Virus record (IMG/VR): IMGVR_UViG_3300028833_000057 | Span: 96,001 to 160,000 of that record | Direction: 5' to 3' (one strand) | DNA from: a virus | Lineage: Duplodnaviria > Caudoviricetes | Length of the DNA: 64,000 nucleotides | Part shown: piece by piece, positions 38,123 through 53,086 of the stretch | Numbering within the stretch: the first letter of the stretch is position 1 | Layout of the letters: each line of letters starts with the position of its first letter | The notes under the pieces: model-generated | Told to the model about the DNA's origin: nothing | What the model saw: only the letters and a program-made list of their open reading frames with translations | The model's database searches: none | Position numbers and translations under genes: made by a program

Positions 38123-38196
38123 TAGTCCATGCGGGATTCGAACCCACGACCTACTGCTTAGAAGGCAGTTGCTCTATCCAGCTGAGCTAATAGACT
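38123..38196 (-). tRNA. tRNA-Arg (anticodon UCU)
   Basis: Cloverleaf: acceptor AGTCTAT/ATGGACT, D-arm TAGCTCAGCTGGATAGAGC, anticodon arm ACTGC-CTTCTAA-GCAGT, GGTTCGAATCC; CCA not encoded. Confidence 0.95.
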
Positions 38197-48868: not shown

Positions 48869-48910
48869 ATTATAGAAGTACTCAATTATATTAAGTAATG
48901 AGGTACAAAT

Positions 48911-49012
48911 ATGAAACAAGCTTTTGCAACATGGTCTTTCTTTATGTCAATAGCATGCACTGGACTATTCTTCTTCGGTCTTATCTTGCTACTTGCTATA
49001 AGAGGCATGTAA
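48911..49012 (+). CDS. 33-aa single-pass membrane peptide (not in ORF track)
   Basis: MKQAFATWSFFMSIACTGLFFFGLILLLAIRGM*, GAGGT SD, TATATTAA at 48887-48894. Confidence 0.65.
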   Translation: MKQAFATWSFFMSIACTGLFFFGLILLLAIRGM

Positions 49013-49026
49013 AAAAAGAAGAGCAT

Positions 49027-49383
49027 TTAGTGCTCTTCTTTTTTTCCGTCCTCCTTACACGGAAACATGAATTGCCAAGTAACCTTTTTAACGTCCTCAA
49101 CATCGGCTAAGGTAATGTCTACTTCTAGCTGATTAGTAGTATGCCTATTTCTTTTGACATACTTTATGGGAACAGCTGTAAAAGTAAAATGATCGCCAAT
49201 GATAAGACGCTTTTTAGTAAGCCATGGTCCAATATCTACCCAGACATGATCACAGATCACTTTATTTTCCGTGTCAACAATATTGATCAGGCATACCCTA
49301 TCCTTTTTAGCACCATGCGCATCGAATTTCTCGATTTCTGCTTTGTATTGGTTTCTCTGATGAATCGTTCCTAAATTTCGCAC
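49027..49383 (-). CDS. Hypothetical protein (possibly OB-fold-like)
   Basis: 118 aa, DHVW motif, AAGGAGG SD, early motif upstream. Confidence 0.7.
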   Translation of the reverse strand: MRNLGTIHQRNQYKAEIEKFDAHGAKKDRVCLINIVDTENKVICDHVWVDIGPWLTKKRLIIGDHFTFTAVPIKYVKRNRHTTNQLEVDITLADVEDVKKVTWQFMFPCKEDGKKEEH

Positions 49384-49480
49384 ATAAGACCTCCTTGTTG
49401 AAGTGCAATTTTTAATATATTCTTTAAAAGTAAATATTTACATAAAAAAAAAATAAAAAGACATCAGCTGTCTTTTTATT

Positions 49481-49780
49481 TTAATTAGATTCATCAAGAA
49501 ATTTAGCTCTAATTATAAAGAATGTATCTCTACATGTCAAAGGATCAAATAAATAAAGATCTTGAAAAAATCTTTTTTGAATATTATTAAGGCTATCTAA
49601 ATATGTAATTTTTATATCTTTAATTGTATTGAATGTAATCGGAGCAATTCGCATATGGAGACATATACCGAATTGCTTTGATGTAATGCCTTCGGTTAGT
49701 TTTCCATATGCTAAATTGATAAAACCTGAAACTGTACCAGTATATTCTTCTCCAGTTACAGTGTGTATTAAAGCTTTCAT
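49481..49780 (-). CDS. Hypothetical protein
   Basis: 99 aa, ATGA overlap with an upstream small ORF. Confidence 0.6.
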   Translation of the reverse strand: MKALIHTVTGEEYTGTVSGFINLAYGKLTEGITSKQFGICLHMRIAPITFNTIKDIKITYLDSLNNIQKRFFQDLYLFDPLTCRDTFFIIRAKFLDESN

Positions 49781-49929
49781 ACAGTACCCACATAGTTGCT
49801 TTTAATATCTTGTACTATAGACTTTGCAATCATTACTATCTTATGTATATTTTGCTTAGTAATCTCTTGATTATAAGCTTCTAATTCTTCGGGACTTAGA
49901 AAATTCTCTGAATCAGTATTCAAAGCCAT
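49777..49929 (-). CDS. Small hypothetical protein (50 aa, not in ORF track)
   Basis: MALNTDSENF...GTV*, GAGGT SD. Confidence 0.55.
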   Translation of the reverse strand: MALNTDSENFLSPEELEAYNQEITKQNIHKIVMIAKSIVQDIKSNYVGTV

Positions 49930-49938
49930 ATAAACCTC

Positions 49939-50277
49939 TTATCTAAAAATATCCCTATTAAACATTTGGTCAGTGATATCTTTTATATCTTCAGATTTTA
50001 TTGGATAACGCACACAATTTTTAAATATTAGTCTGAATGTCTTAAATCGTGTATAAATGATCCTATACCTGTCGTTATCATATATAACATCAGACGAATA
50101 ATACTTATTATAATCTGGATCATTGCGCCTAAGGTCTTCGTCACGTAATCCATACATGTCTTGATAGTACCCATTGGGAACCCTCATTATATCTACATTT
50201 GTTTTGCGATGTTTGAGTATTAAACCCAATATAAAGTAATATACCTTAAAATATAGGTATGCCATTCTTTCCTCCAA
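49939..50277 (-). CDS. Hypothetical protein
   Basis: Probable start MAYL after GGAGGA; early motif upstream. Confidence 0.65.
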   Translation of the reverse strand: MEERMAYLYFKVYYFILGLILKHRKTNVDIMRVPNGYYQDMYGLRDEDLRRNDPDYNKYYSSDVIYDNDRYRIIYTRFKTFRLIFKNCVRYPIKSEDIKDITDQMFNRDIFR

Positions 50278-50336
50278 AGTTAGGCAAATTTTAATATATG
50301 TAAAAAATTTATAAAAAAAAGAAGAGGCCGTAGCCT

Positions 50337-50900
50337 CTAATTAATGTCTAATATTTCTGACTCCTTAGGATATACCTTTTTGTAAAGATGCCTATAAATA
50401 GATTTAAATAATTTATCCTTTATAAAAATATCTTTGTATTTGTCTAAGAAGTATAATAGATTATATCGGTCAAATTTATCAGATGGTATCTCACTTATAT
50501 CCATTAAACGTGTACTAGGAATTATTTCATTGTTAAGCGATTTTTGGCGCATGTTCTCCATGACCTGTAAATTACCGCGTATATGACTAATAGTAGGATC
50601 AGTTATACATTCCTGATATACTTCTATAACATCACCTTGTTTGATTGGATTTCCCTTCTTATATTTTTTTCCGTTTAGAAGGGCTTCAGCCCGTATAATT
50701 CCTTTATCTCGCATAATGCTAAGAACTTGAGATAAAAAATCTTTAGATGCATCTAATTCTATACCATTTGGGCTAGATCTATGAAAGATATGCATCGTTA
50801 TATTTTCCATCAGTTTATAAGCTCTTACTCCGCTTGTATTAGGCATTGGATGTATTACGTCCATATTGCCAAAATAAAGTATTGTTTTAGTATCATTCAT
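50337..50900 (-). CDS. Hypothetical protein
   Basis: 187 aa, AAGGAG SD, early motif ~50932. Confidence 0.7.
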   Translation of the reverse strand: MNDTKTILYFGNMDVIHPMPNTSGVRAYKLMENITMHIFHRSSPNGIELDASKDFLSQVLSIMRDKGIIRAEALLNGKKYKKGNPIKQGDVIEVYQECITDPTISHIRGNLQVMENMRQKSLNNEIIPSTRLMDISEIPSDKFDRYNLLYFLDKYKDIFIKDKLFKSIYRHLYKKVYPKESEILDIN

Positions 50901-51002
50901 AATGACTCCTTGATATTAAACGATACATATCTTAATATAAGGAAGCGTAATGAAAAATTTCGATTATTTTGTATATGAAATCTATTTTAATCTTTATAGA
51001 AA

Positions 51003-51498
51003 AAAGAAGTGGCTAGCTTCTTCCCACATCCTTCTAGGGATGTGTAAGTCCGTTTCTAAGTCTATCTAGTCCTCGCCTATGATGTTGCCACCCGGCTCTT
51101 AGATCCCATCTTTCCATTCCGCAACCTTGGTAGGTACATCGAAACGTGAGTCGCGCTTTCCACGACGGGTTACCCAGTTGCCTACTGGAAAATGAATTTT
51201 AACCTTTGCTATGGGCTACGTATTTTCATGCGTATCGCTATTGTTTCAATGGTCATGATAGACCCTGATGCTATTGCATAGTAGCGCATGCTGTCAGGCT
51301 TACTTTTGTTTTTATGAGTCCTGCTTCATTTTACAGTCTCAACCTAGCTATTCATACATATTTGACGCTATGTATGCGTTTAACGTCAGCTAGGATGCTG
51401 TGCCACCTTAACGGTTTTCAGTGACACTTGACGATATCATAACACGTTTGACCATACCGATCCTCTTAGGAGTTAGTATCTTATACTATGATACACGT
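51003..51498 (-). ncRNA. Candidate large structured ncRNA 3 (~490 nt)
   Basis: ORF-free and GC-enriched; promoter motif 51500-51507; more than 10 helices including a pseudoknot; terminal hairpin + U-tract. Confidence 0.7.
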
Positions 51499-51557
51499 TT
51501 TAATATAATATTATTAAAATGATCTTTACGTTTATTTATATGAAGTTATCCGTCAAA

Positions 51558-51569
51558 AACACATCATTA
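51558..51569 (+). promoter_or_regulatory. Late-type promoter motif AACA-N6-T(A/G), representative
   Basis: AACA CATCAT TA; the same spacing at 20026, 26314, 31743 and 44933; variants at 53777, 59140, 60158, 61428, 63513 and 25835-25846 (minus). Confidence 0.65.
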
Positions 51570-51586
51570 TAAATAGGAAAATTATT

Positions 51587-53086
51587 ATGCAATTAGTATT
51601 ACCTGATGTAAACAAAATCGTTGAGCAAAATAGGCTCCCAGAAGTTACCAATCCAGTTTACCTAGATGGTAGTAATACCCCTACTTCCGATGGCATTTTC
51701 AGTTATGAACTATTTGGTAGGCCAGGTAGTGCCAAACGTAAATTTCAATTTGGTTATATTGATCTTGGAAAGCACTTTATTCAGCCATTAGCTTATGTCC
51801 AAATGGCAAAGTTATTCTCAAAATTACCAGATATTATCAATGGTACTAAGAAATTCACCATTGCTAAGAATGGTTTTCTTATTGAAGATGAGGAAAAAGG
51901 TGGTACTGGTATTGAATGGCTATACGAGAATTTTGATAGAATAAACTTTGATGATCGTGGTACTGCTAGTCGTAAAAAGAAAATAGAGATATTTACAGCA
52001 TATTCTAAGAATGAGATATTTACATCTAAATGGCTGACTATACCTCCATTCTATTTTGACATTAATTTAAGAACTGCAGAAGGTGCTAGATCTATTGATG
52101 AACTTGGATCACTTTATATTAAACTTTTGTCTATGACTAAGATCTTAAAGAATGAAGGTGCATTCTTTACTGCTTATAATATGGAGCATACAATTCAAGA
52201 TACTCTTGTTCAGATCTACAAGCTATTGTCTAGTAAGATCGCTATGAAAACTGGTTTGATCCATAGTTCTATTCTTGGTAAAAATATTGACTATACAGTT
52301 CGTGGAGTTATATCTACACCAATTATCCGTAAAGCAAATTCTTATAGAGACCAGCAAGTTCCATATGGCTATGTAGGCGTTCCATTATATATGGTGGCTA
52401 CAGCTATGTTCCCGTTTATGATTTCAGAACTTGAAAAGTTTATGCAATCAATGAATGCTTATAAAGTATTTATTTCTAATAGTGTTGGACATGAGATTAT
52501 AGAAGATACTATTGATAATATTTCTTCTACAAACTATGAAAAGCTAATTAAGCTGTATGCAAAGTCTCCAGAAAATCGTATGCAAGAATTCAAGGTAGAA
52601 ACACCTGATGGTGCAAATGCCTTAGCTCCATTTGAGAAATATCTAGGTAGACCTTTTACTATTACAGATCTATTATATCTTGCAGCTAGCGAATGTGTTA
52701 AGGATAAATTTGTCTTATTTACTAGATATCCGATTACTGACTATCGTAGTATCTGTCCTTATAAAACTACAATTCTTACAACAGAAGCTACTTGTCATAT
52801 GAGATTACTAGACAGTGATAGATTTGACTTTAAATTCTATCCAGATTTCACAAAGAAACCTATTTCTTGGATTGATAGTATTAGACCTCATTTCAGTTAC
52901 CTTACTGGTTTCGGTGCCGATTTCGATGGTGATACTATGAGCCTTAAATATGTATACTCACAAGAGGCTAACCTTGAACTTGCAAAGAATTTCTACAACC
53001 CGATGATGTTCTTGGATCCAAATGGTGGTGACTCCAGAGGTCTAATTAAAGACTCTATTTTATCACTTTATGAAATGACTAAGTAA
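51587..53086 (+). CDS. RNA polymerase beta' N-terminal piece with catalytic DFDGD (probably virion RNAP)
   Basis: DGIFSYELFG, FGYIDL, ILGKNIDYTVRGVI, TRYP, FGADFDGDTM; late motif 51558-51569. Confidence 0.92.
   Translation: MQLVLPDVNKIVEQNRLPEVTNPVYLDGSNTPTSDGIFSYELFGRPGSAKRKFQFGYIDLGKHFIQPLAYVQMAKLFSKLPDIINGTKKFTIAKNGFLIEDEEKGGTGIEWLYENFDRINFDDRGTASRKKKIEIFTAYSKNEIFTSKWLTIPPFYFDINLRTAEGARSIDELGSLYIKLLSMTKILKNEGAFFTAYNMEHTIQDTLVQIYKLLSSKIAMKTGLIHSSILGKNIDYTVRGVISTPIIRKANSYRDQQVPYGYVGVPLYMVATAMFPFMISELEKFMQSMNAYKVFISNSVGHEIIEDTIDNISSTNYEKLIKLYAKSPENRMQEFKVETPDGANALAPFEKYLGRPFTITDLLYLAASECVKDKFVLFTRYPITDYRSICPYKTTILTTEATCHMRLLDSDRFDFKFYPDFTKKPISWIDSIRPHFSYLTGFGADFDGDTMSLKYVYSQEANLELAKNFYNPMMFLDPNGGDSRGLIKDSILSLYEMTK

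Follow-up and report, generated by a model that had tools for sequence, protein, structure and literature searches.

The window analysed here is a stretch of 64,000 nucleotides (bases 96001-160000) of a 267,826-bp IMG/VR virus record that is estimated to be complete. The phage is an uncultured AR9/PBS1-like jumbo phage of the rumen with a genome of 268 kb, of which 33% is GC and 7.6% is non-coding DNA. At 50901-51586 of the window, 686 bases devoid of any open reading frame (ORF) separate a 187-aa ORF on the minus strand from a plus-strand gene that encodes a piece of the β′ subunit of a phage multisubunit RNA polymerase (RNAP) (PHROG 2986, E 4e-91; Pfam Rpb1 domain 2). The nearest isolated relatives of the latter belong to the AR9/PBS1 group (~35% identity), and its best match among isolated phages, AR9_g145, is annotated as the N-terminal subunit of virion RNAP β′, so the name 'virion RNAP β′ gene' is reasonable. 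The AR9 orthologue (AR9 118211-123163), unlike the uninterrupted window gene, contains two group I introns that carry homing endonucleases. The 187-aa ORF is an orphan with an early promoter of its own: it had no Pfam or PHROG match and no tblastn match among phages, and among 5.8 billion proteins searched the sole hit was the ORF itself. The sole tRNA in the window (38123-38196) is 13 kb away.

Between these two genes, and divergent from the β′ gene, lies the unit that we call RNA3 (Table 1). The first-pass annotation had proposed a stand-alone non-coding unit of ~490 nt at this place, on the minus strand and back-to-back with a virion-type RNAP β′ gene, and our analysis supports that description; every helix string that it listed is indeed found on the minus strand where it had been placed. 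Each of the six frames of the 686-base interval holds 13-20 stop codons. A hidden ORF or an alternative genetic code was considered and rejected: because all three kinds of stop are present in every frame, no recoding opens the interval, and no single stop-codon reassignment opens any frame. Local GC is 0.42-0.46, as against ~0.30 in the flanks, and with a GC content of 0.43 the 495-nt unit ranks among the highest 4% of genome windows. Internal direct repeats amount to short chance pairs only. The idea of a CsrA sponge was set aside on a count by eye of 10 GGA motifs in RNA3, near the number predicted from base composition.

Table 1. Features at the RNA3 locus, in window coordinates. Comparisons are with the homologous unit of the sister-strain contig L063; L002 is a second sister-strain contig.
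Feature	Coordinates	Strand	Elements and comparison
Virion RNAP β′ gene	51587-53086	plus	
Shared divergent control region	51508..51586	plus	78-80% identical in L002 and L063
Late-type motif	51558-51569	plus	AACACATCATTA, in front of β′; fits AR9 late consensus AACA-(6N)-TA/G (PMC5312081)
Early promoter motif	51494..51507	minus	TATATTAA-AACG-TG; predicted transcription start G 51494
RNA3 unit	51494 to ~51000	minus	~495 nt, from promoter motif to hairpin and U-run
5′ domain, copy-specific	51428..51494	minus	GUAUCAUA/UAUGAUAU, UCCU-AAG-AGGA; sequence only, no comparative support
H1	51400..51427	minus	GUGUCACU/GGUGGCAC, conserved loop AAAACCGUUAAG (L063 comparison); in L063 CUCAUGCA/UGUAUGAG with the same loop
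H2	51343..51394	minus	CCUAGCUG/UAGCUAGG, enclosing copy-specific hairpin CAUACAUA/UAUGUAUG and proposed pseudoknot UGACGU/GCGUCA; outer helix in L063 CCUAGA/UCUAGG
H3 and conserved single-stranded linker	51299..51341	minus	UGAG/CUCA and UAAAAACAAAAGUAAGC; in L063 GCGC/GCGU, then UAAAAAUCAAAGAAGGC
Variable central domain	51195..51298	minus	
Conserved hairpin of central domain	51246-51268	minus	GGUC/GACC extended by UCAG/UUGA; in L063 GGUCA/UGACC extended by UUCAUAG/CUGUGAA (independent MFE fold)
3′ domain	51045..51195	minus	H5-H9, then conserved strand AUCAUAGGCGAGGACUAGA...UAGAAACGGA
H5	51174-51188	minus	CCAGU/ACUGG
H6	51150-51166	minus	GUCGUG-GAAAG-CGCGAC; one pair changed on both sides
H7	51115-51146	minus	five pairs changed on both sides
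H8	51094-51106	minus	GGAUC-UAA-GAGCC
H9	51081-51092	minus	GGUG-GCAA-CAUC
3′ end	51000..51044	minus	copy-specific hairpin CACAUCC/GGAUGUG, then terminator hairpin and U-run
Terminator hairpin and U-run	51025-51000	minus	GAAGAAG/CUUCUUU, GGGAAGAAGCUAGCCACUUCUUUUUU; 26/27 bases the same as in L063
Next early promoter	50926..50946 (motif at 50939)	minus	TTATATTAAGATATG; serves the 187-aa ORF
187-aa orphan ORF	50337-50900	minus	

The 5′ end of RNA3 is predicted from its promoter motif, and the predicted start is also the first base of the first helix in the earlier annotation. The core TATATTAA occurs 107 times in the genome, with 68 of these copies in the small non-coding fraction; the logo of the 68 reads T-TATATTAA-A-N3-TG, with a G at +13 in 60 of them. 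This resembles the mapped early promoter consensus of AR9, AAATATATATTAT-(6N)-G+1, which is used without new protein synthesis, i.e. by the virion RNAP (PMC5312081). Both are extended AT-rich motifs with a G start at a fixed downstream distance, although the spacing differs by one base (the G lies 5 nt past TATATTAA here and 6 nt past TATATTAT in AR9), and back-to-back early and late promoters between opposed genes are common to both phages. A scan for sigma-70 sites returned 11, against 8.7 expected; the RNA3 promoter motif is of the AR9 early type rather than sigma-70-like. In a subclass of the early promoters across the genome, a further conserved element, (A)CCGTAAAAT(TTCTAAGATCC), is seen ~20-25 nt before TATATTAA; examples are found at G000 80974, 79753 and 80235 and, ahead of RNA3, at 51520-51545 of the window, and CGTAAA(A/G)AT stands in the place of this element in RNA3, L063 and L002.

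At the other end of the unit the terminator stem is weak (7 bp, two of them G-C) and was missed by a terminator scan, and read-through into the 187-aa ORF is possible. A second early promoter sits between this terminator and the ORF, and the RNA3 unit and the ORF are therefore separate cassettes.

Structure of RNA3 and its homologue

Judged from its own sequence, the structure of RNA3 is not above chance. The minimum free energy (MFE) of the minus strand gives a z-score of -3.08 versus -0.70 for the plus strand, but a sample of 18 windows of 495 nt drawn at random from this genome has a mean z of -2.2 (sd 1.6, minimum -5.7), with several below -3. Because such windows, which are mostly coding, fold on average 2.2 sd better than dinucleotide shuffles, a z-score near -3 is no evidence for an RNA gene in this genome. 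The same asymmetry between strands is seen in the homologous unit described below (-3.05 versus -0.83) and is suggestive only. Local stems of at least 7 bp number five in RNA3, compared with 3.2 ± 1.8 in dinucleotide shuffles, and 68 of 300 shuffles reach five. The density of helices that the first-pass annotation had placed in the range of large phage-associated RNAs is thus within the range of shuffled sequence and of the genome background. What support there is for a fold comes solely from comparison with a second copy.

That copy is a non-coding unit of ~480 nt in a sister strain (L063:2925-3406), which has the same promoter as RNA3, no open frame and raised GC. BLAST aligns the two units at their ends only, namely in the promoter region (80%) and the terminator. 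A covariance model of the 3′ domain of RNA3 alone nevertheless finds L063:2996-3141 (38.2 bits, E 1.3e-7 in 208 kb) and one built on the 5′ domain picks out L063:3270-3379 (21.8 bits, E 0.0034). The two matches are collinear, as are the nine hairpins H1-H9. The body of the unit is ~57% identical between the copies, with 85 of ~150 bases shared in the 3′ domain, as against ~85% for the adjoining β′ gene.

On the model-based alignments, 96.6% of pairing cells can pair in the 3′ domain and 100% in the 5′ domain; when the partners are slid by 1-3 columns as a control, only 18-53% of cells do so. Altogether 21 pairs differ between RNA3 and L063, of which 19 pair in both copies, and 12 pairs are changed on both sides, spread over five helices (four in H1, one each in H2, H3 and H6, and five in H7); in H1 all cells pair. 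These counts use alignments fitted to the covariance models, and the covariation comes from two sequences only. H1 and H7, however, lie between invariant loops and linkers, so that their alignment is independent of pairing, and the independent MFE fold of L063 shows the same hairpins. The loops and linkers are more conserved than the stems (AAAACCGU, UAAAAA-CAAAG, (A/U)GGCA, GAAA, UAA and AUCAUA-GCGA-GACUAGA...ACGGA), with conserved single-stranded stretches 10-19 nt long. Loops of the GNRA type are present in both copies: GCAA in RNA3, and GAAA and GUAA in L063. Overall, the conserved part of RNA3 is mostly a string of local hairpins, the comparison of the two copies backing no long-range helix, multistem junction or pseudoknot.

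The first-pass annotation had made its case depend on covariation, and covariation is present between the two sequences; of its helices about half recur in L063. Those backed by the comparison are GUGUCAC/GUGGCAC, CCUAGCU/AGCUAGG, GGUC/GACC, CCAGU/ACUGG, the GAAA-capped stem and the terminator. No conservation in L063 is seen for UACG/CGUA or CACAUCC/GGAUGUG, and AUUG/CAAU finds no backing, the strand concerned extending the GGUC stem instead in both copies. The hairpin CAUACAUA/UAUGUAUG and the pseudoknot proposed with it are both missing from L063, which has a 12-nt loop, UCGACGAAACAU, in place of the inner hairpin of H2; in the outer helix one pair is changed on both sides. In our judgement the 2-nt third loop of the proposed pseudoknot also looks sterically tight. 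The rest of the central ~100 nt of the two copies cannot be aligned with confidence.

At the 5′ end, the helix GUAUCAUA/UAUGAUAU enclosing UCCU/AGGA likewise lacks backing, as the region is missing from L063: the first 67 nt of RNA3 are not conserved, and their counterpart is only ~30 nt long and unrelated. This copy-specific domain contains an SD-like AAGAGGA followed by a 5-nt spacer, an AUG and a 15-codon minigene (MVKRVMISSSVTENR; 51443-51461, minus strand). The SD-like sequence can pair within the UCCU/AGGA hairpin, and the minigene is missing from L063.

These comparisons bear on the possibility that RNA3 is non-functional filler, i.e. a decayed gene or captured foreign DNA which has come to lie between a promoter and a terminator and is shuffled by recombination. 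Such an origin would fit with folding statistics that do not rise above background, with a body that diverges much faster than the β′ gene, and with the absence of RNA3 from most sister strains and its very narrow distribution (see below). Compensating changes in stems whose loops stay fixed, with almost all of the differing pairs still able to pair in both copies, would not be expected of drifting junk, however, and neither copy has an open frame while GC is raised in both. We consider this explanation unlikely.

A strain-variable slot beside the virion RNAP gene

We compared the locus among sister strains, defined by proteins at least 87% identical to the β′ of the window and represented by nine informative contigs. 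DNA homology to the window ends at a conserved ORF of 108 or 112 aa and resumes ~60-90 bases before the start of β′; ~58 nt of the control region, around the late-type motif, are kept in all sister strains. Between these limits is a slot for which we found five states among strains whose β′ DNA is ~80-88% identical to that of the window. The slot is empty in L062 and L064, holds a 150-aa ORF in L058-L061, holds a 149-aa ORF with two other non-coding units in L002, holds a single non-coding unit of ~480 nt (the RNA3 homologue) in L063, and holds the 187-aa orphan ORF together with RNA3 in the window. Every one of these cargoes comes with a TATATTAA-type promoter of its own (with one base changed in the case of both L002 RNA units) and closes with a T-run, preceded in most cases by an evident hairpin. 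Of 50 TATATTAA-N4-TG sites across the genome, 30 are preceded by a T-run no more than 45 nt away, compared with a background of 8%. The adjacent 108-aa proteins of L063 and the empty-slot strain L062 are one residue apart, which indicates that the RNA unit was gained or lost cleanly and recently, as an indel of ~511 nt.

More broadly, the region from an SbcC-like gene to β′ (window 48869-51586, and L058-L064) is a stack of small early cassettes, each laid out as promoter, cargo, and hairpin with T-run, whose content varies between strains. The two non-coding units of L002 (L002:1112-1852, minus strand; ~290 and 419 nt) each have a near-consensus early promoter and a terminator, lack any ORF, and have fold z-scores of -3.50 and -2.91 and GC contents of 0.45 and 0.46. 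The terminator of the first begins like that of RNA3 (GGGAAGAAGUUGGC). Neither unit matched the RNA3 covariance models (R1, R3) or Rfam.

The RNA3 family has two known members, RNA3 and the L063 unit. No blastn match to RNA3 was found in 50,697 GenBank phage records, and exact and degenerate pattern scans of IMG/VR viral contigs, JGI metagenomes and GTDB genomes returned no true further member. Fifteen pattern matches in metagenomes were set aside as chance, as only the pattern itself matches, and a single match in a viral contig of 22,646 nt was taken to be the same locus as one of these, whose contig is equally long. Model R2, run against 36 related IMG/VR records and the phage's own genome, recovered only RNA3 itself, and BLAST of RNA3 against five related virus records yielded nothing beyond 29 nt that match by chance within a 793-aa ORF.

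The downstream gene differs between the two copies: RNA3 is followed by the 187-aa ORF and the L063 unit by the 108-aa ORF. This is relevant to the idea that RNA3 is a long 5′ leader or another cis-regulatory element of the 187-aa ORF, such as an attenuator or a riboswitch-like element. RNA3 lies directly upstream of that ORF and in the same orientation, the intervening terminator is weak enough to have escaped the scan, and the 5′ domain offers a minigene and an SD-like site that could be taken up in the UCCU/AGGA hairpin, all of which would fit a leader. A full early promoter nevertheless stands between the terminator and the ORF, the homologue precedes another gene rather than keeping a constant association, the minigene region is missing from L063 and no riboswitch or leader family was matched. 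Given the different downstream genes and the intervening promoter, a cis-acting leader is improbable.

What RNA3 may be

The reading that we favour, with a probability of roughly two in three, is that RNA3 is a real, separately transcribed structured RNA gene of ~495 nt, and a candidate for a new small family. Transcription would start early at the TATATTAA-N4-TG promoter, with the injected virion RNA polymerase as the probable enzyme, and the transcript would end at its own hairpin and U-run. The comparison with the one homologue suggests that the RNA folds into the hairpin series H1-H9, in which the stems drift while pairing is kept. RNA3 would then be one cargo of the promoter-cargo-terminator slot between the 108/112-aa gene and the virion RNAP β′ gene. 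Its gain or loss between near-identical strains indicates that the core lytic cycle can proceed without it.

How a structured RNA of this kind might act can be addressed only in outline. A partner, either protein or RNA, may recognise the conserved single-stranded loops, and the different downstream genes of the two copies argue for action in trans. An alternative is that RNA3 regulates phage or host mRNAs by base-pairing with them, as a long sRNA or an antisense RNA would, and the conserved single-stranded stretches might serve for this. Across the phage genome, though, RNA3 has 22 complementary 12-mers versus 23.9 in shuffles; with no excess of complementarity, base-pairing with phage mRNAs is without support. 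A 495-nt RNA with many hairpins would also be atypical for an sRNA, and we regard this role as quite improbable.

Strain-variable early cassettes usually carry host-takeover or counter-defence functions. By analogy with these, and in view of the fast divergence of the RNA3 body, we tentatively suggest that RNA3 could have an accessory role of this sort, for example as a decoy or scaffold. A broader and rather speculative proposal is that AR9-like jumbo phages of the rumen keep an 'RNA slot' beside the virion RNAP β′ gene which is filled by interchangeable large structured RNAs; two strains have a member of the RNA3 family, and a third (L002) has a pair of unrelated non-coding units with low z-scores. 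If this were true, fast-evolving RNAs that keep their fold would point to RNA effectors, such as decoys, in an arms race with the host, and to a class of accessory phage RNAs that is not yet described. Large structured RNAs of unknown function are seldom encountered, and they have come repeatedly from phages. As a candidate new family, RNA3 offers ends predicted from motifs, a predicted early start and a natural series of presence and absence, which among near-identical strains provides a genetic contrast for seeking a phenotype.

Relation to known phage RNAs and cassette systems

A search of Rfam 15 (4227 families) with cmscan returned no match for the window at gathering score, for RNA3 at E ≤ 10 with permissive filters, or for the L063 unit at E ≤ 5, in keeping with the earlier impression that no known family is represented. 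The ROOL and GOLLD families, which we take to be included in Rfam 15, had been named in the first-pass annotation as RNAs of comparable size and helix density; that comparison is not borne out, there being no covariance-model match at E ≤ 10 and no tRNA neighbourhood. A group I intron was also considered and rejected: there is no match to an Rfam core, no flanking exon and no interrupted ORF, and the upstream flank is a promoter region. RNA3 could still be conceived of as a diverged member of a large known class (ROOL, GOLLD, a group I intron remnant, RNase P, tmRNA or 6S), given a size near the ROOL mean of 581 nt, the first discovery of ROOL in rumen data and its occurrence in phages too (PMC5737381), the group I introns in the orthologous β′ gene of AR9, and the GNRA-type loops. 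Set against this are the failure of either copy to match any of the Rfam families even with permissive filters and the lack of flanking exons, of a homing endonuclease and of neighbouring tRNAs, which together make such membership very improbable.

ROOL and GOLLD are large ornate RNAs of bacteria and phages whose function is unknown (PMC5737381, PMC12286853) and which form homo-oligomeric, RNA-only assemblies (PMC12286853). RNA3 is similarly large, non-coding, phage-borne and of rumen origin, with GNRA-type loops, but it is shorter than the average ROOL RNA (495 nt versus 581 nt). ROOL has six junctions and three pseudoknots (PMC5737381), whereas in RNA3 and L063 only local hairpins are backed, from two sequences, and the proposed pseudoknot is missing from L063. 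ROOL and GOLLD are spread over multiple phyla and are often found near tRNAs or in prophages; the RNA3 family has two members, and RNA3 itself lies in a lytic-type jumbo phage away from tRNAs.

Some other structured RNAs encoded by phages are smaller. The stable RNAs of T4, species 1 and 2 (RNA C and RNA D), are ~140 nt long and processed from a tRNA operon, and the pRNA of phi29, 174 nt long and expressed from an early promoter, is indispensable for packaging. RNA3 resembles these as a phage-encoded structured RNA that is not a tRNA, and the pRNA also in having an early promoter, but it differs in its length of ~495 nt, in forming a unit of its own and in being dispensable, as its absence from sister strains indicates. 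To our knowledge, AR9 has not been described as making a long non-coding early RNA, and neither 'noncoding' nor 'non-coding' occurs as a word in the AR9 transcription paper (PMC5312081).

A close parallel for the locus as a whole is with the PeSLs of T4-type phages, in which early promoter and stem-loop terminator modules allow recombination to shuffle non-essential genes in hyperplastic regions (PMC2839356, PMC4122927). As in a PeSL, RNA3 lies between a conserved early promoter on one side and a stem-loop terminator on the other, and insertions, deletions and replacements between near-identical strains fall exactly at such modules. The promoter here is of the AR9 virion-RNAP type, however, whereas that of a PeSL is sigma-70-like, and the cargo is a structured RNA, whereas PeSL cargo is described as protein-coding genes (PMC2839356). 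These likenesses suggest that promoter-terminator cassette shuffling of the T4 type operates in AR9-like jumbo phages, and that RNA genes can be moved by it along with small protein genes. A cassette slot that carries different structured RNAs in sister strains would be of more interest than RNA3 alone.
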